A stretch of 64,000 bases of DNA from Candidatus Micrarchaeaceae archaeon (GCA_038877255.1 JAVYWZ010000001.1:1-64000), one strand, 5' to 3'; counted from the first letter of the stretch, positions 2,431-34,900 are shown. Notes: generated from the sequence alone by a model not told the origin. Numbers and translations: made by a program.

Positions 2431-3555
2431 ATGCGGTTGGAAATGCAGATTCCGAAAGAGTTTGTGGTAAAGACGGAAGTTCATGATTATAAGGAGAAGC
2501 TGCCAGCGCTCATTAGTAGACTAAAAGCAGCAGGCACAATCGTAGTGCTAAGGCAAGGCGCATATGCTGGCATCGTTGATGACAGGGCGCTTGTTAGCAG
2601 CAACATAGCAAAAATGCAGAATATACAAATAAGCAAGCTAGCAACAAAAGCTCCGCTGCTAAACGAAAAGACAAGCGTTGACGAGGCACTTAAATACTTC
2701 TATGACCTAGATGTAAAAGCACTGCCATATGCTCAAGGCAAGAAAGTGTCTGGCGTTGTAAAGCGTGAAACGCTTCTTGCGATGTTATTATCACTACATG
2801 CGCTGTCAAGCGTAAAGGCCAATGAGATCATGACTTCTCCAGTAATTGGCATAGACTCAAATGCCAGCGTTGCCGAGGCAATAGCGACAATGCAGCAAAA
2901 AAAGATAGGCAGACTACTCATAATTAGCAACGGCAAGCCTTCCGGAATAGTAACCAATAGTGATATAGCATTTGCACTCGCCAGCCCAGCTGAACGCTTG
3001 CCGGAAATGAAGAAAGAAGCACACGCACTTGATGATATAAAAATAGACAGCATAAGCCAGGAGTATCTGCGCACACTCGATTACAACAAAAGCGTTGACG
3101 ACGCAATAAAGCAATTCATCAATAACGGCATTTCATCGCTGGGAGTAATGCGAGAAGGAAAGATAATAGGGATATTAACTGCAAGGGATATTCTCAAAGC
3201 CGCAATTTCATCGATAAACAAACAAGTGCCTATCTATATTTCAGGGCTTGAAGCATACACAAAGGAGAATGAAGACGAAATAAGGAGCGCGCTGGAAAAA
3301 ACAGCAGACAAGATAGACAGATTTGCAAAACTTGATGTAACCGCTGTTTTTGTAACTGTCAAGAGCAAGAAAAGCGTTTATGAGATTAACGCAAGCGTAA
3401 AGTTTGAAAAAGGCATTGAGCTGCGCGCTGAAGCCAGCGGCCAGATGCTTGACGAGACTGTGAACGAATTAACCAAAAAACTTTACAGTATGGCAAGAAA
3501 ATATAAAGAAAAGCTGCAGACTAAAAAGGAAGGAGCGGAGCGACAATATGCCTAA
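2431..3555 (+). CDS. Tandem CBS-domain protein with C-terminal HPF/RaiA-like domain (probable Hib-type ribosome hibernation factor)
   Basis: Four CBS-like units (GIVDDRAL, GVVKRETL, GIVTNSDI, GILTARDI) and a ~100-aa beta-alpha-beta-beta-beta-alpha tail (IYISGL...EINASVKF...AEASG...ETVNELTKKL). Start moved to ATG 2431 because the ORF-track start overlaps tRNA-Cys. Confidence 0.8.
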   Translation: MRLEMQIPKEFVVKTEVHDYKEKLPALISRLKAAGTIVVLRQGAYAGIVDDRALVSSNIAKMQNIQISKLATKAPLLNEKTSVDEALKYFYDLDVKALPYAQGKKVSGVVKRETLLAMLLSLHALSSVKANEIMTSPVIGIDSNASVAEAIATMQQKKIGRLLIISNGKPSGIVTNSDIAFALASPAERLPEMKKEAHALDDIKIDSISQEYLRTLDYNKSVDDAIKQFINNGISSLGVMREGKIIGILTARDILKAAISSINKQVPIYISGLEAYTKENEDEIRSALEKTADKIDRFAKLDVTAVFVTVKSKKSVYEINASVKFEKGIELRAEASGQMLDETVNELTKKLYSMARKYKEKLQTKKEGAERQYA

Positions 3556-4009
3556 GGCGCAATCAAGCTTTGAGTTGCTCATAACGCTGTCGTTCGGACT
3601 AGCGATACTCTTGCCGATTGTGGTAATTGCATTTATACAGCTTGCTAGCGCAAACAGCTCGCTTTCGGCAATAAGCGCGCAAGAAGCAGCTAGCAAGCTA
3701 GTAAGCGTGGCCTCATTAGTAGGCAGTGAAGGAGCGCCTGCAAAGGAGCTTGTCCAGATAGTTGTGCCTGCAAATGTCAGGTTCATATATGTAGGCACTC
3801 CGGTAACTAATGCAGTAGGCCATGAGATAGTTTTTGTAGTTTCGTCGCCCACTGGATTAAGCGACATAACAGCATACTCTCCAGTTAATGTGAGTGGACA
3901 ACTCAGTGGAATTTCTTCTGAAGGCACATACCTCGTAAACGTCTCTGCGCAGGCACACTGCCAGAGTTACTACGCAGTGCCATGCGTTTACATGTCTGAA
4001 GTTTCATGA
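3548..4009 (+). CDS. Class III signal peptide (type IV pilin-like) protein
   Basis: N-terminus MPKA|QSSFELLITL followed by a hydrophobic helix. Confidence 0.8.
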   Translation: MPKAQSSFELLITLSFGLAILLPIVVIAFIQLASANSSLSAISAQEAASKLVSVASLVGSEGAPAKELVQIVVPANVRFIYVGTPVTNAVGHEIVFVVSSPTGLSDITAYSPVNVSGQLSGISSEGTYLVNVSAQAHCQSYYAVPCVYMSEVS

Positions 4010-4052
4010 TGTTTGCGCAAGTTTCTTATTTCTTTCCTGCTTAGTAAGAAAC

Positions 4053-5090
4053 ATGGCGGCTAAAAGAATCGACAAAAAAGGTAGCATGGCAATTAAGAAT
4101 AAGTCAGTAATAGCAAATCCGAAGAGGTTTTACACTTTCTTAATAATTATTGTAATAGTAATAGCTGCAATAGCATACGCACTAATTCCAAGAAGCAGTG
4201 TTCTGTTTGTAAGTTCTGGAAAGAGCGTGCAGCTGAAGCCTGGCGAAGCGATGCTCATGAAGATGCAGAACAGCAGCGTCTTCGCAATGCTTGTATATAA
4301 GTCGAACAGCACAGGCGCTATTGTGTATATATCGCAGCTTCCAATTCCCGCAAGCTATGCGTCAAAGTTCGTTCTGCTCAAAGGCGAAAACGCAGGCGTA
4401 AATGTGAGCGTAAATGCCACTGGAAATGCAGATCTTAACGTTCGCCTCTCAAGCAGCAATGCCACATCTGTCGAGCTGCTGCTTACACCGCTTTCCAGCA
4501 TTTTAGGCATCAAAGTAAGCAAAGAAGTTACGCTAGTAGGTCCTTACGCCATAAGCACTGCAGGCGGTCTAAAGGTAATAACAATATCTACAACAAGCTC
4601 GACATCTACAACCACGTCTACAATAAACCAGACCGCAGCCTTGCTAGAATCCGCGTTGAATTACGCAAACAACAAAACCAACGAAGGCGTTCTAATGAAT
4701 AAATACAAAGCGCTATACAACAAAGACACCGTTTGCAATGAAAGCATTTACAACGCGACGTATGAGCATTACTACTCGACTGAACCTTCAGGCGTCTCGT
4801 CGTTTGACAATATAAGCAAGCTAATTCCAATAAACGTGACAGTGCATGCTGCAATAAAAAGCGGCGCTTTTGTGTTTGTGAATTATACCCCAACATTTCG
4901 CAATGGCAGCAGAGGCGGGCCCATGCTCTCTTTGCTGCTGAATATGTCACCTGGAGCCGTTGCGCATGTAGCAAACGCAACATACGAAGGCATACTTACC
5001 TACGCTACTTATGCAGAGATTAATTCGACATATGCGTTCCAAAGCAGCATAAATAACTATTGCGGTGCGTATATAGTTCCGCCATCGTAA
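4053..5090 (+). CDS. Membrane-anchored extracellular protein of unknown function
   Basis: Basic N-terminus, one TM helix, Ser/Thr linker (TTSSTSTTTST), many N-x-S/T sequons, two C-terminal Cys. Confidence 0.7.
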   Translation: MAAKRIDKKGSMAIKNKSVIANPKRFYTFLIIIVIVIAAIAYALIPRSSVLFVSSGKSVQLKPGEAMLMKMQNSSVFAMLVYKSNSTGAIVYISQLPIPASYASKFVLLKGENAGVNVSVNATGNADLNVRLSSSNATSVELLLTPLSSILGIKVSKEVTLVGPYAISTAGGLKVITISTTSSTSTTTSTINQTAALLESALNYANNKTNEGVLMNKYKALYNKDTVCNESIYNATYEHYYSTEPSGVSSFDNISKLIPINVTVHAAIKSGAFVFVNYTPTFRNGSRGGPMLSLLLNMSPGAVAHVANATYEGILTYATYAEINSTYAFQSSINNYCGAYIVPPS

Positions 5091-5170
5091 CTTGTCTCTT
5101 GCCTCTGGCTTTTGGAGCTTGCAAAACATATATATTACTGAACATGCAAATCTCATTTGCGGTCGGTTGA

Positions 5171-6007
5171 ATGGCGCTCTCTAGTAAAAACCTTTTCTTC
5201 ATGCTTGTGCTGATATCATTTGTGTTCGTTCTGCTCATTTATTTACTTTACCTGCCGACTTATGTAAAAATAATATTTGCAATCATAGCACTTGCAATAG
5301 ACGTAATGGCATTCTCCACTAAATATTATACTTACTTATTTATTCCGTTGTTGCATGCAAAAAACAAGACAGTTGTTTTGAGCCCTGACCCCGCGTTCAG
5401 AATTTCGCCAAACGGCAACGCCATAATAGTAAGATCAGAAGGCCTGTTTTACGTAAGCGCGTTCGTTAAAATACCATTTTACAAATCGGCAACAGAGATG
5501 ACCGAAGACGAGCGCACTGACTTTGCAAGGTCGTTTTCGAAGATGCTCACGATAAGCAAAGAACCCGTAAAATTCACCACGCTGCTATATGTAATAAACA
5601 AAGATGAGTACATAAACGAGATAAGGCAGAAACTTGACCTTGCAGAAGCGGCATATGCTTCACTCAACGCTCAGGCAAACCCGGCACAGACTACACCCCA
5701 GCTTGAAAGGGCAAAAGGCGAAGTCACTATGTGGAGGAATCTGCTTGATTCGATAAGCAGGGTGCGTTCCAATGCGCTAGGCAGTTATGCGATGGTAACC
5801 GCAACAGGAGCAACAGAAGAAGAAGCTACAACAATTGCGATGCAAAAGGCAGATGAACTTGCTGCAGGCATAAGCGCTACGCTGGGTGTTAGCGCTTACA
5901 TAATGGAATCAAAAGAATTCATAGCAATGATAGAGCCTGAAGAAATGATACCGTTCGCAACAATAAGCGAACAGATGCAGGAAAAGACTGCTTCGTTAGG
6001 TGTTTGA
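5171..6007 (+). CDS. 2-TM membrane protein with coiled coil; resembles PrgI/VirB3 plus VirB4 N-terminal region
   Basis: Two N-terminal TM helices, then EMTEDERTDFARSFSKML...PVKF...YINE and a coiled coil. Paralogous to the next gene and upstream of the ATPase. Confidence 0.6.
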   Translation: MALSSKNLFFMLVLISFVFVLLIYLLYLPTYVKIIFAIIALAIDVMAFSTKYYTYLFIPLLHAKNKTVVLSPDPAFRISPNGNAIIVRSEGLFYVSAFVKIPFYKSATEMTEDERTDFARSFSKMLTISKEPVKFTTLLYVINKDEYINEIRQKLDLAEAAYASLNAQANPAQTTPQLERAKGEVTMWRNLLDSISRVRSNALGSYAMVTATGATEEEATTIAMQKADELAAGISATLGVSAYIMESKEFIAMIEPEEMIPFATISEQMQEKTASLGV

Positions 6008-6009
6008 GC

Positions 6010-6834
6010 ATGGATTTCAATACCATACTTTACCTTGCAACATGCTCAATAATTGCAATACTTGTAGGAGCGGCAACTACCACATATGGATCTAGTGCAA
6101 TACCAATTGTTGTGCTTTCTATAATTGCAATACTCTTATTTTTTATAATAAACTATGCCGACTTTTTGCTATTCCCTGTGTTTACCAATATATTCAACAT
6201 AAAGCAGATACCAGCCAAAGACTACTATATACCTAAGAGCAACAACGCAGTGATAAAATATGTGAATGGAATATACTACGCGACAGGCTACCTCACTGCA
6301 AACATATACAATTACGTATTTACAGTTGAGCAAATACAAGAAGGCGAAGAAACATTGCTTGCTGAAGGGCCTAACAACTGGGAACGCATAGTGCAAAACA
6401 TAACATTTCCCTTCAAGTACAACATAGTCTGCTATGCGGAAGACCTGCAAAAATATAGGGACGAGCTAGAAGCCAGAAGAGGCGCTCTCGAATTCCAGCT
6501 TTCGAGGGAAATGAGCTCTACAACACCAAGCCAGCTTACCATAGAGGACCTCCAAAGACGCATAAACATAATACAAACAAGGATAGATAGGCTTTCAAGC
6601 GGCGAAAGGCCCATAAACGCCGCGATGTATCTGGAGAGCACAGCCGTCGGCGTAAGCGAGAAGGAAGCGCTTGATGCCCTTGCAGCCCAGCTTGACCACC
6701 TGCAAACAGTGTTTGGCGGCTTCGACCTCAGCATTACAAGGATAACAGGCAGAGAGTTGTATCTGCTTTTCCAGTTCAACTATGCTGTGCCACAGCAACA
6801 GGCACTGGAGCTCGTATTTACAGTTCAAAGGTAA
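6010..6834 (+). CDS. 2-TM membrane protein, paralog of 5171..6007
   Basis: Same layout. Shared segments NAVIKYVNGIYYATGY vs NAIIVRSEGLFYVSAF, and TAVGVSEKEAL vs TATGATEEEAT. Confidence 0.6.
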   Translation: MDFNTILYLATCSIIAILVGAATTTYGSSAIPIVVLSIIAILLFFIINYADFLLFPVFTNIFNIKQIPAKDYYIPKSNNAVIKYVNGIYYATGYLTANIYNYVFTVEQIQEGEETLLAEGPNNWERIVQNITFPFKYNIVCYAEDLQKYRDELEARRGALEFQLSREMSSTTPSQLTIEDLQRRINIIQTRIDRLSSGERPINAAMYLESTAVGVSEKEALDALAAQLDHLQTVFGGFDLSITRITGRELYLLFQFNYAVPQQQALELVFTVQR

Positions 6835-6885
6835 GGCAATGCTGAAACTAAAACGCTTTAATAATTTTGTGAGAAAAGTGGTATC

Positions 6886-8391
6886 ATGGGCTTGATACGC
6901 CTTCAAAACGTTATGAGTAACGAGCTTGGAAAAAGGACTGTATTAAGCAGGCCACCTGAACCGCCATACGATTATCTGCTTAATGATCCTACAAATTCCA
7001 TATTCATAGGCATAACAAAGCTGTTCAGCGTGCCTTTCACCTGGACTTTTGCAAATCTTACGAACCCGCACGTTGCAGTAGTCGGAATAACAGGAGCAGG
7101 CAAAAGCTTTTTTGTAAAAACTTTTCTCACTAGGGCAAGCTTCGTGTGGAACACTAACGCAATAATAATAGACTGGGCAGGCGAGTACAAAGCATGGGTA
7201 AAGCAGAGCGGCGGCATTATAGTGGCGCTTGGGAAAGGCGATTATTTAAACATAATGGACCTTTCAGGCATGAAGCCGCTTGACAGGACCAAACAGATAA
7301 TCACCTCGTTTGAGATACTTACCGACATAGGAGATTACCCGGAGCAGAAAAGGCTTACGGAAGAGGCGATAGAACAGGCATATGTAAATGCAGGCTTCGC
7401 GCTTGCTGAAATTCCCGAAGCAAAACGGGAAGCGCCAACGCTTAAAGACGCCATCTCGCTGCTTGAAGAGCAGCTGCAGGCAGGAACTTACGAATATCCT
7501 GCAGAGCTTGAGAATGCAGTTTATAGGCTAAGGCAATTTGCAAGAGAAGGCGAAGACTATTTCGCGAAGAAAAGCACCATAGACTTGGGAAAGCTTGCAA
7601 GCTCTGGCTTGGTTGACATAGACCTTTCGAGCCTGCCTGACGAGCGCTTCAGGGCACTTGCCGCATTAGTAATATTGCAAACGCTAAAGGAGAAGATGCG
7701 CATGGAAGGCTGGTCAGCAACCAAAGGCCTCAAGGCGCTTGTTGTTCTTGACGAAGCATGGAAAATAGCGAGCGACGAGCGCAGTGACGCGGTAACTATA
7801 ATAAGGGAAGGCAGGAAATACCAGTTCGGCTTAATCGTAGCGTCACAAAATCCTACTGATATTAACGAGGCAATATTTTCAAATGTTGGAACAAATATCT
7901 TGTTAAGAATAAGATTCGAGCGCTTCCTAGACTATGTGCAGGGCTCGCTCAATTTCTCTGAGTTTATGAGGCGCGAAATTAGCAAGTTTGGCGTAGGCCA
8001 GGCAGCAGTAGATATGTCTTTCCAGACTAATGTAGAATTTCCAGAGATATTCCTAATAGACAGGATAATAGGTGAGGTGCCGCTTGACGTATATACCATA
8101 AATGTTGCTGATATATTGAGCCAGAGCGAACTCAATGATGAAAGCGTGCAAAAAGAGTATTTTCTTGAAAAAGCAGACATAAACGCAAAACTAATAGAGA
8201 ACAACATAGGGTCTGATGTCATAAATGAGGTTTTCAAGCAGCTTGATGCAAAAGGCAGGCTTGTAGACATACGCAGCATAGTGCAAATGCTTCTTGGCTT
8301 GCAGGCAAGCAAGGAAGCAGTAGTGGGCTTTCTGCGCGCAGTGGGCATGCCCGATTCAGTTATAACCCGCGCGTTTGTATATGTTACATAG
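6886..8391 (+). CDS. VirB4/HerA(DUF87)-family P-loop ATPase (CedB/TraE-like)
   Basis: NPHVAVVGITGAGKS (Walker A), IIIDWAGEY, VVLDEAW (Walker B), IIREGRKYQFGLIVASQ. Confidence 0.9.
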   Translation: MGLIRLQNVMSNELGKRTVLSRPPEPPYDYLLNDPTNSIFIGITKLFSVPFTWTFANLTNPHVAVVGITGAGKSFFVKTFLTRASFVWNTNAIIIDWAGEYKAWVKQSGGIIVALGKGDYLNIMDLSGMKPLDRTKQIITSFEILTDIGDYPEQKRLTEEAIEQAYVNAGFALAEIPEAKREAPTLKDAISLLEEQLQAGTYEYPAELENAVYRLRQFAREGEDYFAKKSTIDLGKLASSGLVDIDLSSLPDERFRALAALVILQTLKEKMRMEGWSATKGLKALVVLDEAWKIASDERSDAVTIIREGRKYQFGLIVASQNPTDINEAIFSNVGTNILLRIRFERFLDYVQGSLNFSEFMRREISKFGVGQAAVDMSFQTNVEFPEIFLIDRIIGEVPLDVYTINVADILSQSELNDESVQKEYFLEKADINAKLIENNIGSDVINEVFKQLDAKGRLVDIRSIVQMLLGLQASKEAVVGFLRAVGMPDSVITRAFVYVT

Positions 8392-8399
8392 GCAATTTG

Positions 8400-8699
8400 A
8401 TGGGCGCTACCTTCACCATATCAAGGCAAAAGTTGCAGCGCATGCTAACGATAATTGGTGTAAGCGAAAAAACAATACAGGAGCTGCTTGCAGAGCTTAA
8501 CAAGCAGCATAGGCACGTAAACGCAGTTTCTTTTGCGGGTATGCTCGAAAAATCGGGGCTAAAAGCTGAGCAGGTAGTAAATGTGCTTAGAAGGATAGGC
8601 ATAGACGATGTTACAATAACCAATGTGCTCAATATGCTTGACGAGGAAAAGATAAAAAAAGAGTATGGCAGGCTTGTTTACCTCGAACTGGGACCATAA
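8400..8699 (+). CDS. Small helical protein homologous to the C-terminal tail of the upstream ATPase
   Basis: EQVVNVLRRIGIDDVTIT aligns with the ATPase segment EAVVGFLRAVGMPDSVIT. Confidence 0.65.
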   Translation: MGATFTISRQKLQRMLTIIGVSEKTIQELLAELNKQHRHVNAVSFAGMLEKSGLKAEQVVNVLRRIGIDDVTITNVLNMLDEEKIKKEYGRLVYLELGP

Positions 8700-9049
8700 T
8701 GCAAAAAAGCGTTTGTATAATTTGCGGCAAAGAGAAACCAGGGCTAGAAGTGCAAAACGATTTTATAATAAGCAGCATAAGGTGGTTCAAGAAAAACATA
8801 ACGAAGAATGAACAGAACAACAAACTAGTAGTGTGCAAAGAATGCTACACTGAATATTCAAGCGCGCGAAAAAGATACGAGGGAAGAATGAAGCTTTACT
8901 TAGCGCTTGGAATAATCTTCGCACTTTTTGCAATAATAGTATCCTCAGACAAACTTTACGCGCTGGGCATAGGCGTTCTAGTAGTGGCACTGCTTTACTT
9001 ATTCTCATTGCTAAGCTACACGCCAAAGCTCAAAATTTTGAACAGATAA
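8699..9049 (+). CDS. Zinc-finger (CxxC...CxxC) protein with two C-terminal TM helices
   Basis: CIIC...CKEC and a hydrophobic C-terminus. Start overlaps the previous stop (TAATG). Confidence 0.7.
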   Translation: MQKSVCIICGKEKPGLEVQNDFIISSIRWFKKNITKNEQNNKLVVCKECYTEYSSARKRYEGRMKLYLALGIIFALFAIIVSSDKLYALGIGVLVVALLYLFSLLSYTPKLKILNR

Positions 9050-9181: not shown

Positions 9182-9904
9182 GTGGTTGAAGAAGAACAGG
9201 AACCCAAGGTTTATGAAATAGAATTCCCTGGCACAGTTTCTAGCAGTATAGATTCAATAAGGACAAAGCTTTCACAGGTGCCTTTTTACGCGATAAACCA
9301 GAATGCTGATGAGCTGGATGTAGTGCATGTAGAGAGCAGGAACATAAGGAAAGAGCCCTTTCTCTTCTACGCAGTGAAAATAAAGAAAGACAGCCTGGTG
9401 CTTACCTATTCGATAGTGCCGAATACAAGCGAAACGCTTAGACGCGCAACTGTAATAAAGAACCTTACGGGCATGCTTGCAATTATCGCTGATGATTTCA
9501 AAATAGACGAGAATAAATTCTTTCAGTATATTGATTCCTCAATTGCGGAGCTGCTTGGAGGCCTTAACGAAAGCTACAGCTCGCTTTTCAACAAATATGA
9601 TGCGCTACTTAGCGAGTACGCTGAACTGAGGAAGCTCGCAAGCGAACTTACGGTTTCAAATCACAATCTTACAGTGCAGGCCGCTCAACTCAGTGAAGAA
9701 AATAAAACGCTGCAAGCGCAGCTAAACGCCCTGCAAACCTATTCTGATGAAGCCATTATGGCGATGGTCCAGGACTGGCTCGAAGTACATGACAGCACAA
9801 TAGACATAGGCGAGTTTTCGAAAACATACAAAATACCAGAGCCCCGCATAGAGCAGATACTCGACAAGATGGTAAGCCTTGGGTATCTGGAATTGAAAGG
9901 GTAA
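9182..9904 (+). CDS. Coiled-coil protein with C-terminal winged-helix-like domain
   Basis: GTG start after GAGGTG. Heptad region around aa 130-185. C-terminus IDIGEFSKTYKIPEPRIEQILDKMVSLGYLE. Confidence 0.65.
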   Translation: MVEEEQEPKVYEIEFPGTVSSSIDSIRTKLSQVPFYAINQNADELDVVHVESRNIRKEPFLFYAVKIKKDSLVLTYSIVPNTSETLRRATVIKNLTGMLAIIADDFKIDENKFFQYIDSSIAELLGGLNESYSSLFNKYDALLSEYAELRKLASELTVSNHNLTVQAAQLSEENKTLQAQLNALQTYSDEAIMAMVQDWLEVHDSTIDIGEFSKTYKIPEPRIEQILDKMVSLGYLELKG

Positions 9905-9913: not shown

Positions 9914-10069
9914 ATGATTTACACGGTTAGGATAAACAAAAAATATAACTATATAAAAGTTTACAAAATATTAAAACGAATAGGCGGCAATGAGAATAAA
10001 CTTTCAAAAGCGCTTGCAAACTGGATAGATAAGCTTGCAAGCAAGAAAGAGCAAACTGGTAGTTTGTAG
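9914..10069 (+). CDS. Small basic 51-aa protein (below the ORF-track cutoff)
   Basis: ATG...TAG frame MIYTVRINKKYNYIKVYKILKRIGGNENKLSKALANWIDKLASKKEQTGSL fills the gap, ending 1 nt before the next ATG. Confidence 0.45.
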   Translation: MIYTVRINKKYNYIKVYKILKRIGGNENKLSKALANWIDKLASKKEQTGSL

Positions 10070-10070
10070 T

Positions 10071-12401
10071 ATGCGCGGAAAGAAATTCATAATAACAGGA
10101 ATAGCACTTGTCGCATTTTTTCTAGTTCTTATTTTCGCAATAATTAGCGTTGCTAGGACAGCAATAAGAAGCATTTCAGTTTCACCGGCTCAGCCTGGCG
10201 CGCTGCATGCAACCGCAAGCGTTGTTTCCTCATCTTTTTTCGATTACAACAACAGCGCGCAGATTGCGGAATACGCGCTGATAGATTATTCGTTGCATAA
10301 TGCAAGCAAGGCGAACGCATCTATAAGCGTGTATACACAGAATCCCATCAGGCGCGTCTATCTGGTAAATACAAGCCAGTACTCGATAGATTCTTTTAAT
10401 GAACAGGCACTTTACGAAAATTTGACGAACACACTGAACAGGTTTGGCTTGCTTATTAATCAATCAAGCTTCGCATATGTGCCCATGCAGGACCTTCAGC
10501 AAATAAGCAACTCCATAATAATAATACAGTCGGGGCTCATGCCGCTGCCACTGCTTGAAAACTATTCGATAAGCATTTTCAGAATGCTTGATAAAGGCAA
10601 TACATTAATTTACATAGGCCGCAATTTCAGCAATGAAATAGACAGCTCAGGCATAATCTTCGTTACGCCTTCGAACGTCACCTCAAAGCTTGCTTCATAT
10701 GGCATAAGCACTGTGCCCGCAGTTGTAAATGCGAGCGTGAAATCTACATTTGGATTCAGCAAACCTACATTCTATTTCAGCAATGGCAACAGGCAAGGAA
10801 ACGTTGCATATGTTGGCGTTCACAATGGAACAATAATAGCGTTCTCAAATTATCCTACCGCTTCTTGGCGCAATGCCAGCGCCCTTGCAGAAAGCATAGC
10901 ATCCAGCATAGGCTCTGATTTCTGGATAAATAGAGTGGCATATGGCATGTTTAATATAAGCACGGCAAATGCATCAGGTGAGCTAGGCCTGTTTACCAAG
11001 CAGCAAAGCATAGCAATGCCCAACAACACTGCTGCTTTTGCTGAACTCAACGACACCTATTCGCTTGTGAGGCTTACGGCAAGTAATGCGACAGGCTTTT
11101 TATCAGTAACAGCGCCATTCGTAACTAGGTACTCGCTTTCCGGAACGTTGAGCATGCCTAGCGTTGTCAGCGATACGCAAAACATATCAATAGGAATAAA
11201 CACCACTAGCTCAAGCCAATCTCAGTTTCACATAGATGTTTTAAGCAGCAATATGAGCTATGTCACTTCCATAGGCATACTTCATTCATTTGTAGGACCT
11301 GTGCAGATAGTACTGACACAAAGCTTTTCGATTCCTTCTGGCACTTACATAGCGCTGCTAAGAAACCAAATGAATAAGAATTACACAGCCGCAATTTTCT
11401 CAGTAGCAAACCTGAGCGTAACACCTATTTCGCTGAATTTTAAGAATGGCACTTTTTCTTTCAGCGTTTACAGCGGTACATTTCCGGTAAATTCAAAGGC
11501 ACAGATAAGCTTTGACAATACATACAAGGAGATAGTGCCTGTAAGCGGAGGCGTGCTTGAATACAACTTGCCAAAGGGTACAATAATAAGCTATGGCACG
11601 CAGACGTTTGATATACTGATATTTGGGCAGAGGCTAAACTACACCGCGACTTACGCTAAGGAGATACTGCACATACCCACATTTTACATAGAAATAGGAG
11701 TAGTACTGCTTGCTATACTGTTGCTCAACATTGTACTCAAGCCGCCAAACCGGGATGAGTATTACATAGACGTGCCTACATTCATACCCGAAAAACAAGA
11801 AGTGATGAAAATAAAGCAGGCAGATTTGTTGAGCGTCTTCGAAAAAGTAAATTATTACTACCACTGGTCGTTCATGCCGCTTACCATAGACGAATTCAAG
11901 AATGGCATTTCTAGTTATATACGCTACAACAACATGCCTGTTTCGGTAACTACGCAGAATGCGCAACTTCTTATAGATTTGCTGACAAAATCAGGAAGCG
12001 TCGTTGAGAAATCTGGGTACTATGCGCTCTCCTCTTGGCTTTCAATATCGAAGCACGATATGGAATATCTTGTCACGTTCAGGGCGTTAAGAGATTACTG
12101 CGTAGAGCATGCAATACTTTTCACAGAGCTAAATGCTGATCCAAATGCAGACATGCTAATAACAAAGAAGGGCAGGCAGGCCAAGGTCATGATATACTCT
12201 AGCGAAGGCGGGATACGAAAGTTTGAGATCGACAAAAATGACAGCATTTTTATAGCGTTCGTAAGTAGCGAGGCAAAGGCAGAGTTCAAAAACAGGCTTT
12301 ATGATTCATTTACCAAAACTGCAGAGGTACTTAAAATAGCAATTCAATACGGGCACGTAAAGCTCGTAAGCATAGACGATCTGAGCGGGCTCATGCCGTG
12401 A
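10071..12401 (+). CDS. Large membrane protein: extracellular glycoprotein domain, TM helix, cytoplasmic wHTH-like and alpha/beta domain
   Basis: N-terminal TM, ~500-aa sequon-rich region, second TM (FYIEIGVVLLAILLLNIVL), then PLTIDEF...LLIDLLTKSGSVVEKSGYY. Confidence 0.65.
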   Translation: MRGKKFIITGIALVAFFLVLIFAIISVARTAIRSISVSPAQPGALHATASVVSSSFFDYNNSAQIAEYALIDYSLHNASKANASISVYTQNPIRRVYLVNTSQYSIDSFNEQALYENLTNTLNRFGLLINQSSFAYVPMQDLQQISNSIIIIQSGLMPLPLLENYSISIFRMLDKGNTLIYIGRNFSNEIDSSGIIFVTPSNVTSKLASYGISTVPAVVNASVKSTFGFSKPTFYFSNGNRQGNVAYVGVHNGTIIAFSNYPTASWRNASALAESIASSIGSDFWINRVAYGMFNISTANASGELGLFTKQQSIAMPNNTAAFAELNDTYSLVRLTASNATGFLSVTAPFVTRYSLSGTLSMPSVVSDTQNISIGINTTSSSQSQFHIDVLSSNMSYVTSIGILHSFVGPVQIVLTQSFSIPSGTYIALLRNQMNKNYTAAIFSVANLSVTPISLNFKNGTFSFSVYSGTFPVNSKAQISFDNTYKEIVPVSGGVLEYNLPKGTIISYGTQTFDILIFGQRLNYTATYAKEILHIPTFYIEIGVVLLAILLLNIVLKPPNRDEYYIDVPTFIPEKQEVMKIKQADLLSVFEKVNYYYHWSFMPLTIDEFKNGISSYIRYNNMPVSVTTQNAQLLIDLLTKSGSVVEKSGYYALSSWLSISKHDMEYLVTFRALRDYCVEHAILFTELNADPNADMLITKKGRQAKVMIYSSEGGIRKFEIDKNDSIFIAFVSSEAKAEFKNRLYDSFTKTAEVLKIAIQYGHVKLVSIDDLSGLMP

Positions 12402-16505: not shown

Positions 16506-17615
16506 TCATATCGCTCTCAAAAGCCCCGATGATTTGGTAGCACCGCCTATAAATTCTGAAATTATCATTATACTCTCATATACTATTGCTATAATCAGCG
16601 CAGGATAGAAAAGTATACTCATCCAATAGGCGCCCATGCCCTGCTGTATGTTCTTTATGGCTAGAACAAGCGGGCTTGATGGGCTTATCGCGTTAGATAT
16701 ACTTGAACTTCCCTGGCCGTTTGCCGCAATAGCCTGTGCGCCCGAATACAGCACGGCCAACGAACTCGAGCTTGTGAAGTAAAAAGCAACGGCAAAAAGC
16801 ACAGGCATCAGGAAGTAGAATCCTATTGCTATCGCCATCATCATGCCGCCAATGCTCCTTGTAGGAAATATTGCACGCAGGATTATTCCCGGTATGAGGA
16901 ATACAGGTATGCTCGCATACATGAAGAACAGTATCATGTAAAATTCGCTATAAAGCAAAAGCAACGCCTCGAGCACTATTGAGGAGATTGCGGCTACAGG
17001 AAGAAGGTAATAAACGGTTATAGGCAATGACCATAGCATAGAAATAGGAATCACGAAAGTTCCAACAGTTATCTTCAAGGTCAGGCTAGCGTAGAAGCTG
17101 CCTATCATATATGAATTGAACATTATTTTCTGTAGGTATATTGTCTGGTTTATATTTTTGCCTATATATGTAAGCGCAGTCGTATATGGATTTATGTTAC
17201 CTGTAGTTATTGCAGGCAGTATCCCGAACATAGTTGCAGAAATGAATAGGAACATGGCAACAATTATCATTGTTGCAACTGACTCGTATATTTCGCCTAT
17301 GCCAAATTCTTTTATTTTGCTGTTCTTGGATGCAACCCCTATTGTGAATATTATAACTGCAAGCATGAACGATGCCAACACTACTAATATTGCAATAGGC
17401 TCCCACTTGGCCCATATTGCCGCAGCAGCTTGGTTTATTTGGTTACAGTACCATGGTGCGACTGCCTGAGCAATCTCAGGGCACGAAGACACAGTAGGCG
17501 AAACCCCGGCTGCGCTGCCCCCATTGGAATTGATAATTGGGCGTGCATAAACAATGCCGGCGCCAATAATGAATAATATAAGTACGAAGACAGCAACATG
17601 TTTTGCTTTTATCAT
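16506..17615 (-). CDS. CedA/TedA/VirB6-like polytopic membrane protein (paralog 6)
   Basis: KIKEFGIGEIYESVATMII; PGIILRAIFPTRSIGGMMMAIAIGFYFLMP; C-terminal ISEFIGG. Confidence 0.65.
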   Translation of the reverse strand: MIKAKHVAVFVLILFIIGAGIVYARPIINSNGGSAAGVSPTVSSCPEIAQAVAPWYCNQINQAAAAIWAKWEPIAILVVLASFMLAVIIFTIGVASKNSKIKEFGIGEIYESVATMIIVAMFLFISATMFGILPAITTGNINPYTTALTYIGKNINQTIYLQKIMFNSYMIGSFYASLTLKITVGTFVIPISMLWSLPITVYYLLPVAAISSIVLEALLLLYSEFYMILFFMYASIPVFLIPGIILRAIFPTRSIGGMMMAIAIGFYFLMPVLFAVAFYFTSSSSLAVLYSGAQAIAANGQGSSSISNAISPSSPLVLAIKNIQQGMGAYWMSILFYPALIIAIVYESIMIISEFIGGATKSSGLLRAI

Positions 17616-17622
17616 AATATCA

Positions 17623-18612
17623 CTATATCAATCTTGTCAAAATGCTCATGAAATCCATTCTTTCGCCTATCGCCTGCGAAAAGTCGCGTATGAACACATC
17701 TAAAATAGTTAATATGAACATAGGCATAAAAACAAAGCCTGCAATCACGTACCCGACAAATTCTATAACAAGATAAATTCCAGTAATAGCTGGTAAAACC
17801 CCTGTGATTGGGTACATAATAAAACCAAGCACCAAAGTTATAGGGTTTGAAGACTCTATGAAAGAAAGCATTGCAGCAGCCGCTTTGCTTGAAATGGTGG
17901 CTCCTATAAAGCCATAACCTATCGAAACCAGCAGCGGAAACAATATTCCTATTCCTATGCCAAATGCTATCATGGCTCCGCCAAATGTCCTTGTAATAAC
18001 AAACATGCGCGAAATCAACCCGATAGCCATAAATACTGCAAAAAGCAGCAAAGAAACGGAAAGCAACAAAAGAAGAACGTCGCTGAGCATATAGAAAACG
18101 AAAATCAGACTCAGCTCTGTAAAGTCTATTCCGAAACTTGTTGCAAGACCTTCTATCACAGTAGAAAAGCTAACATAATATAAGTTTGCGCTAATTGGAA
18201 CAGAGAATATTGACGGTATAAGAAGTATATACGCCAAGTAGTTCAAATCAGAGAGATAGCCATTAAACGTATTAAGATCGCACATTGCAAGCGAATAGAT
18301 GTCAAAGTTATTAGTGCACGAATAAGGCGAGACGCTATGAAGCAGGCTGCCAAAATTTATGCTAGTAAACAGCGCCATGAATGCAAAGAAAATAAAGACA
18401 AGAGCGATTGAAAACATTACTTCATAAATCTTTATTTTCGCCCATGCGCGCAGATCAGTTCTGCCAAGCATTGGGCTTAATGCATAAATAACAGAGAGTA
18501 TGCTGATTACTGCAAGCGCTCCGACAAGAGCCACAGGGAACCACACATATGCTGGCGAAGTTATTGTGCCGTAAATATTAAACAAGAGCGATGGGATTGC
18601 AAACATAATCAT
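17623..18612 (-). CDS. CedA/TedA/VirB6-like polytopic membrane protein (paralog 5)
   Basis: DLRAWAKIKIYEVMFS; GLISRMFVITRTFGGAMIAFGIGIGILFP; FSQAIGE. Confidence 0.65.
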   Translation of the reverse strand: MIMFAIPSLLFNIYGTITSPAYVWFPVALVGALAVISILSVIYALSPMLGRTDLRAWAKIKIYEVMFSIALVFIFFAFMALFTSINFGSLLHSVSPYSCTNNFDIYSLAMCDLNTFNGYLSDLNYLAYILLIPSIFSVPISANLYYVSFSTVIEGLATSFGIDFTELSLIFVFYMLSDVLLLLLSVSLLLFAVFMAIGLISRMFVITRTFGGAMIAFGIGIGILFPLLVSIGYGFIGATISSKAAAAMLSFIESSNPITLVLGFIMYPITGVLPAITGIYLVIEFVGYVIAGFVFMPMFILTILDVFIRDFSQAIGERMDFMSILTRLI

Positions 18613-19766
18613 ATCACCTTCTTAAGAAGCCCCTTGCTTTCTAGAGATGGAGCGCCAAGTAGGTCACCAAGGCCTTCAAGCAGATCGAACGAAATCAAGA
18701 ATGCAATCACAAGCCCAAGCAACTGCAATGCGCCGTATGCGAAAAAGTTAGCAAAGTCTGCTATTTCGGTCATTATTGAGGTTATGTTCACTCCTGCAAA
18801 TATGCTTTCTAATACAGAAACGATATTTGTGGATACACTGGATAAACTCAAAGTCGGAACAATGCTCTGTAAGGTACTAATTGTATTTGTTTGGAGTATG
18901 GAAAATGCATAAAGTATGCTCGGAAAAACTATGAAAAACGAGATAAACAGAGCCACCAAAGAGCCCCCTGCCGCACGTGTCCATGGAAAAGAACGTAACA
19001 ATATTCCTACATATAATAATAGAGGGAATATGCTATAAATTATTCCTAGCAAGAAGCTCATGCCAATGTATATTGCCAGCAATGCGTACACAACGGCGTT
19101 CTCCGTGCCTATTATTTTTGCATATGGGTATATGCCTGCAAAAGGCGAGTAGCTGTATTCAACACCGGTAATGCCGAACAAACCAGAGTTGCCTATCGCT
19201 ACTTGGAAATTTTGAAGAATAGAAAGGTCTATGATATTTGGTGCCAGCAGGTAAAATATGTTTGATAAGCCGCGATTTATGCCGTTAGTCAAATATGTTG
19301 TGCAGAGGGTGCTGTATAGACCGCGAGTGCTGCTTATACTAGCAGCAGTGGTTGAGCCGGGAGATACAGAAACTATGGCAAGGTTGCTTAGAAATGAAAC
19401 CGACCCGTCTATGACCCCTATGCCGCCCACTATAATGACAATAAGCAAGATATTGAAGATGCTTTCGATATATTCCTTCTTAACAAACTCCATTAATGTA
19501 GGTATTCCAAAAGCCCTGCCTATGGCATAGATAATGCCAAGCACCACTAGAACCAATAGCACAATAAGCAGCGAAATGCCCAATAGCGCAGAATAGCTGC
19601 TGCCTAAGTTAGGCGCACTGCTTAACATGTCGTTACAAAGCGGGCTTACTACTCCGTTTTCTAAATCTTGTATGAAGTTTCCTAAACTTTGTGCTTTGGA
19701 AACACCTGAAAGAAGCAGAAACAGCGTAATTCCAAGGAACACAAACATAAAATGTTGCATGCGCAC
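18609..19766 (-). CDS. CedA/TedA/VirB6-like polytopic membrane protein (paralog 4)
   Basis: LMEFVKKEYIESIFN; GILLRSFPWTRAAGGSLVALFISFFIVFP; LGDLLGA. Confidence 0.65.
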   Translation of the reverse strand: MRMQHFMFVFLGITLFLLLSGVSKAQSLGNFIQDLENGVVSPLCNDMLSSAPNLGSSYSALLGISLLIVLLVLVVLGIIYAIGRAFGIPTLMEFVKKEYIESIFNILLIVIIVGGIGVIDGSVSFLSNLAIVSVSPGSTTAASISSTRGLYSTLCTTYLTNGINRGLSNIFYLLAPNIIDLSILQNFQVAIGNSGLFGITGVEYSYSPFAGIYPYAKIIGTENAVVYALLAIYIGMSFLLGIIYSIFPLLLYVGILLRSFPWTRAAGGSLVALFISFFIVFPSILYAFSILQTNTISTLQSIVPTLSLSSVSTNIVSVLESIFAGVNITSIMTEIADFANFFAYGALQLLGLVIAFLISFDLLEGLGDLLGAPSLESKGLLKKVI

Positions 19767-19777
19767 TTTGTCACCTG

Positions 19778-21484
19778 TTATATGAACCTGCTCAGACCTA
19801 ATATGTCTGATTCTCCTCCTAATATTTTTGAAAGGCCGATTGCCGCACCGTACACTATTAAGATATTAAGCAGAGGCAGTATGAATGCGGTTATGCCAGT
19901 AATGCCATATATATTTGTAAACGCAATGCCAGCGCTAAATGCTTTTTCAGGAGTGCATGATATTGTTGGCGGGTAGCCAGGTATTGCGCTTGGGAAATAA
20001 CCTGTTATTGCAGACAGCGAAGTAAATGTAGCTAATCCCAGACCGTAGAAAGGTATAAGATAAAAAGCGTCTGTTGCAAGTTCAAATGTTAGCAGATTCC
20101 CTGTTAAAGGCCAGCATGAGTAGTATTTTACTGTTTGCGTTGCATTTGGCAGTTGGAACAGCGCTATGCCTGAATTATGCGGAGTTGGGCTCGCAGGGCA
20201 CATAGGTATGTATTCTGAAAGCTCGCTTCCACTGTAACATGCTCCAGAAGGCGCTGAGGAATTTGGATCGCCGCAGACGCTTTCATATACATATGGTTTA
20301 GAAGAACTTGGGCAAAGTGTGTTATCAGTGGTGTAGCCGTTTTGGCACAGTTGAAACTGAGAAATCTGGCCTTCAGCTTTGCAATCCGGAGGCGAGCTTA
20401 CTGTGCTTATATTGCCGCATGTGCCTTCATATACGTAATCGCCTGCTGGGCAGCCAACACTGCTTGCCGAAGCATTGGTCAAAAGCTCAAACCCCGAAGT
20501 TGCGCCATAAACAAGGACGTTGCCGTTAGGCGCAAGCTCATATATTGGCGTGTAAGGTATAACGTTGCTGCCTATTGGAAAAGAGGATTCTGTAGTGCCC
20601 AAGGAAGCATATTCAAACAAGAATATCAGAGGCCATATAATCAACAAGGCAATAACTATTCCGATGAGCAGGCCGCCAAGTCTACGTGTATACGGGGTTG
20701 CTCTGAATATTATTCCTGCTGCAAGAATATAAGGCCAAGTAACAAGAAGCATCAAAATTACAAGCAACTGCACGATAAAAGAGTCTATTGAGAGTGCGCT
20801 GACTATGCCTACTGCAAGGCTCATTTTAGAAAGGAAGGAGTAGCCTGCCAAAGGGGTATAATCAAAGTAAATAGCAGTTCCTCCTGCTGTGCCAAAGCCG
20901 CTCACTGACGTAAGCGCTCTAAGGAAGCTTATTGTGCCATCGTATACGTAAAATGCGTTTAGATTGTTTATCGCTTGGTTTGTTACGTTGGCAATCACTA
21001 TGTAAGTAGCGGCAACTCCATAGTCTATTGAGCGCGTAAGTGAAGAGCTGCCGGAGCCTGAAGCCAGCGGCGAGATAATAGTGTTGCATATTGTGTTAGT
21101 GGGCGAAATTTCATTGCTATTTAGAAAGCGTATCTGCGAGTTTGACAGGCTGTTGCATATGCTGCTGACGTGCTGCGCAGAAACTACTGAAATCGGGGAA
21201 AACATGGTAGTGCCAATAACGCTAAGCAGCCAAACTATTATCACTACAAGAATGCCTGTGCCTATTGCTTGAATAAATTCAGCTATCGCCCTGGACTTTA
21301 CCTTTTTGTTATTAAGCAGATAACCGAATATGTAGTAAACAGAAGCTATTACCAAGCTTAGCAATATTGCTACAAAAACTACTGGAAGCCAGTTGCTAAA
21401 CGCAGAATAACTAGGTATTGTTATGGTTTGGGCTCCTGCGAGTGGCAAAACAGACAATAGAGCAAGCAATGCAAATGCTTTCAT
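19778..21484 (-). CDS. CedA/TedA/VirB6-like polytopic membrane protein with Cys-rich insertion (paralog 3)
   Basis: Signal peptide; KVKSRAIAEFIQAIGT; GIIFRATPYTRRLGGLLIGIVIALLIIWP; Cys-rich loop; LSKILGGE. Confidence 0.65.
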   Translation of the reverse strand: MKAFALLALLSVLPLAGAQTITIPSYSAFSNWLPVVFVAILLSLVIASVYYIFGYLLNNKKVKSRAIAEFIQAIGTGILVVIIVWLLSVIGTTMFSPISVVSAQHVSSICNSLSNSQIRFLNSNEISPTNTICNTIISPLASGSGSSSLTRSIDYGVAATYIVIANVTNQAINNLNAFYVYDGTISFLRALTSVSGFGTAGGTAIYFDYTPLAGYSFLSKMSLAVGIVSALSIDSFIVQLLVILMLLVTWPYILAAGIIFRATPYTRRLGGLLIGIVIALLIIWPLIFLFEYASLGTTESSFPIGSNVIPYTPIYELAPNGNVLVYGATSGFELLTNASASSVGCPAGDYVYEGTCGNISTVSSPPDCKAEGQISQFQLCQNGYTTDNTLCPSSSKPYVYESVCGDPNSSAPSGACYSGSELSEYIPMCPASPTPHNSGIALFQLPNATQTVKYYSCWPLTGNLLTFELATDAFYLIPFYGLGLATFTSLSAITGYFPSAIPGYPPTISCTPEKAFSAGIAFTNIYGITGITAFILPLLNILIVYGAAIGLSKILGGESDILGLSRFI

Positions 21485-21557
21485 ATAAACACGCAGTCAA
21501 ACAATTGCCGCACAACGCAATGCCATGCACAACAACCAAACTTATTAAACATGTATT

Positions 21558-22760
21558 TCACCAAAAAGGTCCGCTGCTTACTATGCCTGATAGGGCATTA
21601 AGCCCTTTCGCAATGCCCGCAATAAAGCCAACAGTTATAAGCAAATCAAGCGCGATAAGCACAACGCCTTCGAACGCATATTCAGAAATTATATTAGTAT
21701 AATTGAATGCCACTGTAGGTGCGTCTATTAGAAGAGATAATATGCCTGACAAGCCAGGAGCGGCGCCTGCTGAATTAATGGCGCTGAAGAAATTTAATGA
21801 GACGCTTGCACCGTTTATTGGCACATTCGCGCTTGTAAACAGCGAAGAGGCAGAGACCGGCGGCGGGGTTACAGTAAGGTATTTTGTGTTCAACCAAGTG
21901 CATGAAGAAGATGGTGCGGTAGTGCCGCTTATAGAAATGCAGTTAGTGATGTAGCTGTTGAATGCTATTGTGAGCGGGAACACGAAGAAAAGCCCTATTG
22001 CCAATGCCAGAAACGTATTGGAAACTTCCCTGAGTTTTGGCCCGGTAAACGCAAGCGTGCGCATGAATATTGCGACAGGCAATATTACGGTAAGCGCTGC
22101 TGCCTGTATTATAGGCAGCGCAAGAAACAATATAAAAAGCACGCTAAATACAGCAAGCGTTACTGCGGTAAACGTACCTGAAAATACTGAAGAATATATG
22201 CTGAATATAGACATAAGCTCGCCCGCATCGATGCTTGGATATATTAGTATAGGGTTAGAGCTTTTGAGCATCGCAGAGTAAAAGCTAGTGACTTGAGAAG
22301 ACACATAAGCGGCAGTCTGTTCCGCTATCGCATATTCTATTGCGGTAGTGTAAATTTGCGACGCAAGGACTGTTCCTCTGTTGAATACTAAGTTGCCAAT
22401 ATAAAGTTCGTCGCTGTAAAATACGCCTGGGTACGTGTTTGTTTGCGAATTGGCTTGTGCCAGGCTTGCGCCTGAGTAACATGCAAAGTTGGAGATCAGC
22501 ATAATGACAAATATTATGATAACGCTGAGAAACGCTTCAAAAAGCTCGTAGCGCACTACGCCTCTGAGCTTCTCGCGGTGCTGCACAGGCATTATGCCGC
22601 TTATTGCGTACATAAGGCTCGAAACCATCACTATCAGCATTACAAGCATTACGTTTATCTGGAGCCAATCAGAAGCAAGTGTGCCTCCATAGCCTATGCT
22701 CACCCCGCTTGAGATAAAGCCGCACGCAGGTGCCGAAGCGCTCAATAACAGGTTAAACAT
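21558..22760 (-). CDS. CedA/TedA/VirB6-like polytopic membrane protein (paralog 2)
   Basis: KLRGVVRYELFEAFLS; AIFMRTLAFTGPKLREVSNTFLALAIGLFFVFP; IAKGL. Confidence 0.62.
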   Translation of the reverse strand: MFNLLLSASAPACGFISSGVSIGYGGTLASDWLQINVMLVMLIVMVSSLMYAISGIMPVQHREKLRGVVRYELFEAFLSVIIIFVIMLISNFACYSGASLAQANSQTNTYPGVFYSDELYIGNLVFNRGTVLASQIYTTAIEYAIAEQTAAYVSSQVTSFYSAMLKSSNPILIYPSIDAGELMSIFSIYSSVFSGTFTAVTLAVFSVLFILFLALPIIQAAALTVILPVAIFMRTLAFTGPKLREVSNTFLALAIGLFFVFPLTIAFNSYITNCISISGTTAPSSSCTWLNTKYLTVTPPPVSASSLFTSANVPINGASVSLNFFSAINSAGAAPGLSGILSLLIDAPTVAFNYTNIISEYAFEGVVLIALDLLITVGFIAGIAKGLNALSGIVSSGPFW

Positions 22761-22768
22761 CTAAACGC

Positions 22769-34899: not shown

Positions 34900-34900
34900 T

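Follow-up and report, generated by a model that had tools for sequence, protein, structure and literature searches.

In bacteria, VirB4 powers pilus biogenesis (PMC12624023) and is bound by VirB3, a protein of two transmembrane (TM) helices that is at times fused to it (PMC12624023, PMC12102498). The archaeal Ced system imports DNA (PMC11868833, PMC9905601), and the N-domains of CedB and CedD both superpose on parts of the VirB4 N-domain, a different part in each case (PMC11868833). Patescibacteria carry chromosomal type IV secretion systems (T4SS), mostly without a relaxase, which are essential for epibiotic growth in one strain and have an unknown cargo (PMC12102498); conjugative elements are known in Thaumarchaeota (PMC6563490). 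We describe a gene cluster, encoding two membrane proteins (M1 and M2) and a motor ATPase, in a 64,000-nucleotide stretch of DNA (the window) that represents contig C1 of a 713-kb, 92% complete genome of a Candidatus Micrarchaeaceae archaeon (GCA_038877255.1).

A first-pass annotation had reported a co-directional run of seven genes at 3548–9049 and had read it as a VirB4 split into two membrane-anchored N-domain subunits plus a free motor, domesticated on the chromosome about 8 kb from a CedA-like array. All seven open reading frames (ORFs) are present at these positions, with intergenic gaps of −4 to 80 bp, and homologues of the window proteins carry NCBI names from Candidatus Micrarchaeota/Micrarchaeia. 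We consider it reasonably probable that the genes from 5171 to 12401 are the motor and adaptor half of a chromosomal Ced/Ted-type (T4SS-derived) transport machine that is conserved across Micrarchaeota.

M1, M2 and M3 are stand-alone homologues of the CedB N-terminal module

By sequence comparison, M1 and M2 are full-length paralogues (BLASTP E 2e-6; hhalign 95.9%, E 5e-9, 249 columns). Their AlphaFold models, built on 57 and 60 homologues and with mean predicted local distance difference test (pLDDT) values of 80.9 and 79.6, respectively, share one architecture: an N-terminal helical (TM) hairpin, a mixed α/β domain and a long helical hairpin. BLASTP, hhalign and the models thus agree with the original description of two paralogous 2-TM proteins.

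In Foldseek comparisons with the PDB, chains of TrwK, the VirB4 of R388 (7o41, 7o42, 8rtd), occupy the top seven rows for M1 (best 7o42_E, E 3.9e-3, prob 1.00) and the top eight for M2 (best E 2.6e-2, prob 0.99). In VIA, the M2 model superimposes on chain 8rtd_g with Z 11.2 and a root-mean-square deviation (rmsd) of 3.1 Å over 151 aligned residues (model 70–271 on TrwK 221–384), and on four further VirB4 chains with Z 8.2–8.9 over 159–163 residues; for unrelated proteins the alignment is restricted to a 54-residue hairpin. The M1 model superimposes on 8rtd_g with Z 9.9 and an rmsd of 7.8 Å over 141 aligned residues (model 76–260 on TrwK 223–378). A VIA search with the M1 model that was independent of Foldseek returned matches just to a 60-residue helical hairpin, with VirB4 not listed, and sequence-profile searches of M1 and M2 against solved structures yielded nothing meaningful (best E 0.3 and 1.6).

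The structure comparison proposed for the products of the genes at 5171 and 6010 thus points to a VirB4-N-type fold in both, the soluble domains resembling TrwK ~219–384. This segment precedes the ATPase part of VirB4, because the match of the window ATPase to the VirB4 profile begins at ~423 of 792 positions. Since M1 and M2 both align with it, they correspond to one and the same second half of the VirB4 N-domain. On these models, M1 and M2 are two copies of a single VirB4-N subdomain, each with a TM hairpin, rather than complementary pieces, and nothing here corresponds to the first half of that N-domain. In this the pair differs from CedB and CedD, for which different parts of VirB4 are reported (PMC11868833). 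The 2-TM anchor of the M proteins is like VirB3 (TrwM in R388; PMC12624023).

M3, a 237-aa protein encoded in a second module (see below), connects this family to CedB. The M3 profile (27 ORFs taken from 30 loci) aligns in hhalign with M1 at 98.6% and with M2 at 98.9%. It also aligns with seven genuine CedB sequences at 95.0% (E 3.7e-8, 205 columns, M3 20–250 on CedB 6–223) and with the N-termini of fused thaumarchaeal proteins at 95.5%. Against CedD, the result is null for M3 (6.6%) and, in direct hhalign comparisons, for M1 and M2. The CedB references were drawn from nine sequences above cut-off among 251 Thermoproteota genomes; five CedD and five HerA sequences were also collected. Two M3 orthologues, G002:C7:3749-4450 and G006:C17:8879-9571, carry one in-frame TAG each, which could be a mark of a pseudogene, an assembly error or read-through.

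The fused proteins were found in an exhaustive search with the ATPase, which returned 1968 proteins at E <= 1e-3. Among the 150 listed are seven proteins of 689–913 aa in which the ATPase domain begins at ~residue 283. Their first 250 residues are matched by the M1 hidden Markov model (E 2.6e-6 to 0.1 within that set), and hhalign aligns their N-terminal 300 residues with M1 at 96.4% (E 1.3e-9) and with M2 at merely 17.8%. The fused N-termini in turn align with CedB at 99.2% (E 7.6e-20), and the whole proteins match the CedB model nearly end to end, at 94–144 bits against a cut-off of 700. They come from one Thaumarchaeota and one Nitrosopumilales metagenome-assembled genome (MAG; P0253 family); because these are the only two loci in a species-representative genome collection, the fused form appears to be rare rather than lineage-wide. 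The fused proteins of 861–913 aa are encoded at L076 8884–11469 and L077 9001–11742 (Nitrosopumilales and Thaumarchaeota MAG contigs), and a 290-aa polytopic protein with 6–8 TM segments is encoded directly upstream of each fused gene. Their N-termini are homologous to M1 and M3. In contrast to the window proteins, they combine module and motor in one polypeptide, which has an additional conserved C-terminal extension of ~250 residues.

Because M3 links M1 and M2 to genuine CedB, we identify the M family as the N-terminal module of CedB in the form of a separate gene: M1, M2 and M3 are stand-alone homologues of that module, comprising TM hairpin and N-domain. Judged by profiles, the nearest family appears to be CedB together with CedB-like archaeal proteins rather than bacterial VirB4. 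Of the proposed VirB4 split, the separation into N-domain subunits and a free motor stands; the two subunits repeat the same subdomain, and CedB is the nearer relative. The word 'split' is used here for parts that are encoded separately, as a statement on gene layout and not on evolutionary order.

The motor ATPase and its predicted docking on M1 and M2

The ATPase has its Walker A motif at G67–S74, in agreement with the position near residue 67 that had been noted, and Walker B at D289–E290; neither motif varies in an alignment of 23 sequences. The protein also has two tails, a conserved one of ~50 residues at the N-terminus and a helical one of ~100 residues at the C-terminus. An N-domain of ~400 residues could not fit in front of a Walker A motif that begins at residue 67; the protein of 501 aa thus consists of the RecA-like motor without an N-domain, and its Walker motifs are intact.

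Pfam matches are to DUF87, AAA_10 and the TraG P-loop family. The NCBIfam matches are weak (CD1110-VirB4 67 bits, CedD 67, CedB 65, HerA 51–55). On the CedB model NF041017, with a cut-off of 700, the exact scores are 64.7 bits for the ATPase and 13.2 bits for M2. The VirB4 model TIGR00929 (CagE_TrbE_VirB) gives 41.5 bits against a cut-off of 643.1, with positions 423–712 of 792 matched, and the solved VirB4 4ag5 matches residues 57–334; the window motor thus matches the C-terminal half of VirB4 profiles. The same VirB4 profile found 2 weak matches, none above cut-off, in the 251 Thermoproteota genomes.

A quick IQ-TREE phylogeny, with support from the Shimodaira–Hasegawa-like approximate likelihood-ratio test (SH-aLRT) only, was computed from window residues 45–400 (349 columns kept, 73 rows). 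The rows comprise the window protein, 10 of 30 fetched main orthologues, 10 of 30 second-module loci, 7 of 9 CedB, 5 CedD, 5 HerA, 2 archaeal VirB4-like, 3 plasmid TraC/VirB4-like and 1 CedB-like protein, and 29 of 150 representatives picked by length; a partial ORF (L120) was excluded, and plasmid bacterial TraC/VirB4-like genes took the place of TedB-type references. The Micrarchaeota main ATPases (SH-aLRT 100), the second-module ATPases and the fused thaumarchaeal proteins together form a clade of 41 rows (93), which sits beside CedB plus VirB4 (84). The seven CedB sequences form a clade of their own (99) that is joined with the VirB4-type rows (83), and the window ATPase lies outside it. 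HerA and CedD make up a single clade (99).

The same tree bears on the Ced system itself (loci L121–L131): because CedD groups with repair HerA (SH-aLRT 99) and CedB with VirB4-type ATPases (83), the two Ced motors may have different origins.

We regard it as very improbable that the ATPase is a repair or defence HerA helicase that merely lies beside unrelated membrane proteins. It is true that its best sequence matches among solved structures are HerA (8wiv, E 7.7e-11; 4d2i, E 5e-9) and that HerA NCBIfam models (repair HerA, NF040937 and NF040819) score as given above. An approximately unbiased (AU) test, however, rejects a clade of 11 main ATPases with the 5 genuine HerA sequences (64 log-likelihood units lost, p-AU 0.0019), so that the grouping with repair HerA, which the first-pass annotation had named as one finding that would overturn its reading, is not obtained. 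The N-terminal barrel region of HerA is uncovered, because the HerA profile is matched from position 140 onward only. NurA, Mre11 and Rad50 are absent from the Pfam and NCBIfam matches of 22 flanking and cluster proteins, and these searches place no SIR2 or nuclease partner in the cluster. Further points against a stray helicase are the conserved synteny with M1, M2 and the array, and a complex model that favours binding to M1 and M2.

This model was computed with M1 62–278, M2 62–274 and ATPase 1–445 as partner, with an own alignment for each chain. The interaction prediction score from aligned errors (ipSAE), which expresses model confidence and is not a measurement, is 0.80 (0.79–0.81 in three runs) versus 0.38 for the best control; in the calibration, 116 of 157 solved complexes attained this mark, as did 2 of 215 mismatched pairs. 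Between runs, 94% or more of the contacts coincide, and the pLDDT of the partner is at least 82. In the model, the ATPase tail (1–50) stretches over both M domains, with confident contacts between ATPase 47–50 and M1 199–202 and between ATPase 5–8 and M2 202–205. Residues R17, P26 and P50 of the tail are invariant in the 23 sequences, which extend down to 35% identity, and P23, P24, E25, L31, P35 and G42 are nearly invariant. The N-terminal tail of the ATPase is thus predicted to dock on both M domains, forming a 1:1:1 membrane-tethered unit; complex modelling, one of the checks suggested at the outset, places the motor on both membrane proteins with scores above the controls.

In its parts, the system resembles CedB of Sulfolobales, with which the M proteins share the TM hairpin and N-domain module and the ATPase its FtsK–HerA-class motor. 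Like CedB and CedD, it has two paralogous N-domain-bearing units and is chromosomal and without a relaxase. It differs from CedB in that N-module and motor are separate polypeptides, and from the CedB/CedD pair, in which each unit has its own motor, in that two N-modules serve one motor; the window ATPase stands outside the CedB clade, and homology to the CedD N-domain was undetected. Unlike in VirB4, the N-domain is supplied in trans and is duplicated, and sequence similarity to bacterial T4SS proteins is far below family thresholds. The fused Thaumarchaeota/Nitrosopumilales proteins (689–913 aa; L076, L077) have ATPase domains in the same 41-row clade.

Cluster extent, second module and neighbouring genes

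Synteny was assessed in 14 relatives, drawn from two families of the order, over the 20 kb that surround their ATPase orthologues, and in 12 genomes over 40 kb. The order g15-g14-g13, M1, M2, ATPase, g06, g07, g08, g09 is found on one strand in 12 of the 14 loci (Table 1). In these 12, the last array paralogue lies directly upstream of M1 and is co-directional with it. g06 follows the ATPase in 14/14 loci, and g07, g08 and g09 are syntenic in 14/14 loci of other genera. Over 40 kb, the cluster is uninterrupted from the first polytopic genes to g09 in 10 of 12 genomes; g19 lies upstream of the six paralogues, and co-directional with them, in nine of those 10 and in the separate array locus of G022. 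The breaks differ: in G022 and G039 the cluster is interrupted between M2 and the ATPase, and the second locus of G022 has M1–M2 still joined to the whole array, while just M1–M2 was detected, with the queries used, in that of G039. In the genus of the window, the break falls between g13 and M1, and Exo5, AlaRS and CarS (window 12425–16504) adjoin the array. The cluster is therefore an ancestrally contiguous one of ~14 genes, broken at different points in different lineages with all parts retained each time.

These data change the boundaries first drawn for the system. The conserved unit does not end at 9049 but extends to 12401. Because the array directly precedes M1 in 12/14 relatives, the gap of ~8 kb between motor and array is a local rearrangement; the association of the two stands, as they form one contiguous cluster in these relatives and are not independently distributed. 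Within the window's genus, G005 (locus L068) differs from G000 by an inversion that includes g08–g09.

Table 1. Features of the cluster and its surroundings, in window coordinates
Feature	Position	Strand	Description
g01	3548..4009	+	153 aa, type IV pilin-like, class III signal-like N-terminus; neighbour, not a conserved cluster member
g02	4053..5090	+	345 aa, N-terminal anchor, Ser/Thr- and N-x-S/T-rich; surface-protein-like, genus-specific neighbour
M1	5171..6007	+	278 aa, TM hairpin and CedB/VirB4-N-like α/β domain with helical hairpin
M2	6004/6010..6834	+	274 aa from the conserved start (6010); paralogue of M1 with the same architecture
ATPase	6886..8391	+	501 aa, motor-only, FtsK–HerA/VirB4 class
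g06	8397..8699	+	100-aa soluble protein, conserved cluster member
g07	8699..9049	+	116 aa, CxxC...CxxC zinc ribbon, C-terminal membrane segment; conserved cluster member
g08	9182..9904	+	240-aa coiled-coil protein, conserved cluster member
g09	10035..12401	+	788-aa membrane protein, final gene of the conserved cluster
array	16506..23908	-	six paralogous polytopic membrane proteins of 369, 329, 385, 568, 400 and 379 aa
g19	23954..24742	-	262-aa polytopic membrane protein, first gene of the ancestral cluster

The array proteins have no Pfam match. One Atlas lead, to be read as a lead only, connects the array to a cluster in which 23% of members have a CedA1 domain (score 0.89), and, in tblastn, array gene g13 also matches the 7-TM protein encoded in the second module (E 3.6e-9). 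The six polytopic paralogues are candidates for a VirB6/CedA-like channel half.

In Pfam and NCBIfam, all family matches of g06 are sub-threshold; the C-terminal tail of the ATPase (401–501) gave no BLASTP alignment with it, despite a by-eye likeness of the form 'LRxxG..D..I'. In g07, annotated from the start as a zinc-finger membrane protein, the CxxC...CxxC pattern and the hydrophobic segments that follow are indeed present, and the putative zinc finger family TIGR04104 is matched below its cut-off (E 9.8e-4). g08 has weak coiled-coil matches alone (Pfam). g09, which has no family match, is anchored at its N-terminus; its large outer part, rich in N-x-S/T, is followed by another TM segment and a tail in the cytoplasm. 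The main cluster has no recognisable VirB8, VirB10, VirB11 or VirD4.

The second module lies on contig C7 of G000 at ~28947–36047 (locus L067 10948–18048). It encodes, in order, a 123-aa protein, a 329-aa 7-TM protein, M3, a 344-aa motor-only ATPase, three small proteins and a 721-aa DUF87 ATPase, and thus repeats the order of polytopic protein, M protein and ATPase seen in the main cluster. The match of the 123-aa protein to TrbC/VirB2 is sub-threshold (E 0.0022, 18.6 bits versus a cut-off of 27.9). M3 is matched in 38 of 41 relatives. Between g08 and a 233-aa protein that occupies the same position in the second module, the similarity is limited to E 0.033 over 45 residues, and we do not claim homology.

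The two genes upstream of M1, g01 and g02, had been counted as part of the system, but their linkage to the motor genes is confined to the genus of the window. The N-terminus of g01, MPKAQSSFELL followed by a hydrophobic helix, resembles an archaeal class III (prepilin) signal by sequence, as had been proposed, although there is no Pfam match at E <= 0.1. g01 has one strong match in each of 39 of 41 relatives (42–93% identity); outside genus g1, it lies 5–100 kb from the ATPase or on other contigs, with no match within the cluster loci examined (14 at 20 kb, 12 at 40 kb). g02 has no family match in Pfam or NCBIfam, and tblastn over the fetched loci found it just once, immediately upstream of M1 in G005, a genome of the same genus (45% identity). 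Because g01 is found elsewhere outside the genus and g02 in the same genus only, neither is a conserved cluster member.

Single-copy, strongly conserved and unlinked to the cluster, g01 may serve this lineage as its main type IV pilin. Its presence had suggested that the locus specifies a type IV pilus or an archaellum, a reading that was rejected: the ATPase is of FtsK–HerA and not of PilB/FlaI type, and g01 is non-syntenic outside the genus. In G022, three tandem pilin-like ORFs (locus L071 17031–19990; N-termini KAQSAMEYLMTYGW) lie ~8 kb from the second module.

The cluster is flanked by housekeeping genes, upstream by a PEP-utilising enzyme, a metallophosphatase, RNase H and CBS/S30AE, and downstream by CDP-archaeol synthase, alanyl-tRNA synthetase (AlaRS) and Exo5. 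Pfam scans of the cluster and flanking proteins gave no match to integrase, relaxase or replication families, in keeping with the first description of these flanks.

That the cluster is the remnant of an integrated conjugative element and not a host system strikes us as hardly credible. A tblastn search against plasmids matched TraC, VirB4-like and DUF87 genes in 2827 records, of which 2498 are typed as conjugative; the fused thaumarchaeal relatives lie in regions with winged helix-turn-helix-type genes, and conjugative elements of Thaumarchaeota are on record, as noted above. A remnant is difficult to reconcile, however, with the presence of the ATPase in all relatives at high identity and in conserved gene order, with the flanking genes and the missing integrase, and with a GC content that is unremarkable across 2–12 kb (0.41–0.45). 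The system is chromosomal, as the first-pass annotation had it, and widely kept; the term 'domesticated' would follow from the mobile-element genes not found and from wide vertical conservation.

Distribution, mechanism and biological role

The ATPase occurs in 41 of 41 relatives at 61–93% identity. Of 151 genomes sampled across the phylum, 133 have a match to the M2 profile; for the high-quality genomes the figure is 119 of 133, and beyond the order the match frequently consists of a tandem pair. The 18 genomes without a match include those of families f10 (0/5 matched) and f15 (0/2) and most of f11 (1/8 matched). The counts include the unpublished genome G038. Among sequencing runs, none of RNA was listed for the window, and one of DNA contained a fraction of 0.49 of the sampled words.

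Such housekeeping-like conservation of a chromosomal gene, together with membership of the FtsK–HerA superfamily and a weak FtsK_SpoIIIE Pfam match, would also fit a DNA pump for segregation or division, FtsK/SpoIIIE-like and anchored in the membrane by M1 and M2. We consider such a pump improbable. The FtsK match spans the P-loop only (residues 59–82), the M domains match CedB/VirB4 N-domains and not the FtsK linker, and six polytopic paralogues and a surface protein would be superfluous for division; M2, moreover, was not found in 18/151 sampled genomes, whole families among them.

Returning to the Ced/Ted-type transport machine, we propose the following mechanism. Strands of the ATPase tail (~5–8 and ~47–50) are predicted to add to the β-sheets of M2 and M1, respectively. 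By comparison with known systems, the TM hairpins would do the job of VirB3 and the M domains that of the VirB4/CedB N-domain; the unit would hexamerise under the channel of the polytopic paralogues, and the energy of ATP hydrolysis would be used to move a polymer, for which DNA is the likeliest candidate, through the envelope and probably between symbiont and host. We favour DNA as cargo since the closest characterised relative is a DNA importer; the direction of transport, like the cargo, is a matter of inference.

The same architecture could, with a modest chance in our estimate, do a different job: it might move proteins, lipids or host-derived material, or build a pilus or an intercellular bridge that serves attachment, rather than import DNA. 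The pilus function of bacterial VirB4 (PMC12624023) and the mostly relaxase-free T4SS of Patescibacteria, needed for epibiotic growth with an unknown cargo (PMC12102498), are precedents; by Pfam and NCBIfam, the main cluster is without a relaxase, a coupling ATPase or a clear DNA-binding family, and six putative channel paralogues along with a large surface protein, g09, hint at an envelope structure of some complexity. On the other side, DNA import is the function of CedB and the Ced system, which are the closest characterised relatives (PMC11868833, PMC9905601), and neither an effector nor a pilin gene was recognised in the main cluster.

Several points weigh against a Ced/Ted-type transport machine as we propose it. 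The ATPase falls below all family cut-offs (41–67 bits versus 325–700), and solved HerA is a slightly better sequence match to it than solved VirB4. The tree is a quick one with SH-aLRT support only; its key deep branches have values of 83–93, and several branches are long. Direct hhalign comparisons of M1 and M2 with CedB are weak (19% and 15%), the link running via M3 and the fused proteins. The Foldseek E-values of M1 and M2 are 4e-3 to 3e-2, with template modelling scores (TM-scores) of merely 0.3–0.37, and at 7.8 Å rmsd the structural fit of M1 is poor. The good score of the complex may reflect model memory of solved VirB4, as is usual for halves of a split protein, and the calibration covered complexes other than three chains with custom alignments. 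In the main cluster, neither a relaxase nor a coupling protein or a VirB2-like pilin was recognised.

A more far-reaching version seems to us doubtful, though not far-fetched. VirB4 forms a 'hexamer of dimers', and M1, M2 and the ATPase would re-create, from three polypeptides, its protomer with two N-domains but only a single motor; in that case, the 14-gene machine would act as an essential conduit that draws nucleic acids or other polymers from host archaea. If this were true, archaea would have an equivalent of the Patescibacteria T4SS, and the cell-to-cell dependence of DPANN archaea a possible molecular explanation. The Patescibacteria (candidate phyla radiation, CPR) systems are similar in being conjugation-derived, chromosomally fixed and widely conserved in ultra-small, host-dependent cells (PMC12102498). 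They are, in contrast, bacterial, of MPF-FATA type, and have a full-length VirB4 and separate VirB3/PrgI. The parallel is suggestive as an analogy of lifestyle and not as homology.

We found no description of this system in Micrarchaeota or DPANN in the full-text literature, whose coverage leaves out subscription journals. 'Micrarchaeota' and 'VirB4' co-occur solely in PMC10354927, in unrelated contexts, and 'DPANN' does not occur in the December 2025 review of T4SS nomenclature (PMC12857230). New here are M1, M2 and M3 as trans-encoded CedB/VirB4 N-modules, the motor-only ATPase with its placement in the tree and its predicted tail-mediated docking, and the second module with its pilin candidate together with the fused thaumarchaeal relatives.

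For the motor family, the locus presents the VirB4 N-domain as a separate, duplicated and membrane-anchored subunit that is predicted to catch its motor by a short tail. This is a natural 'split' system in which the role of the VirB4/CedB N-domain can be probed and, with the fused thaumarchaeal forms and the CedB/CedD pair, it provides a series for tracing the evolutionary assembly of these motors. On the question of how DPANN archaea come by what they are unable to produce, our data point to a specific, widely conserved envelope machine with kinship to DNA-import and conjugation systems, whose parts are named well enough for tagging, depletion and imaging in existing co-cultures of a Micrarchaeon with its host. 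Because it is kept in most sampled relatives, this transport machine is probably central to the host-dependent life of Micrarchaeota.

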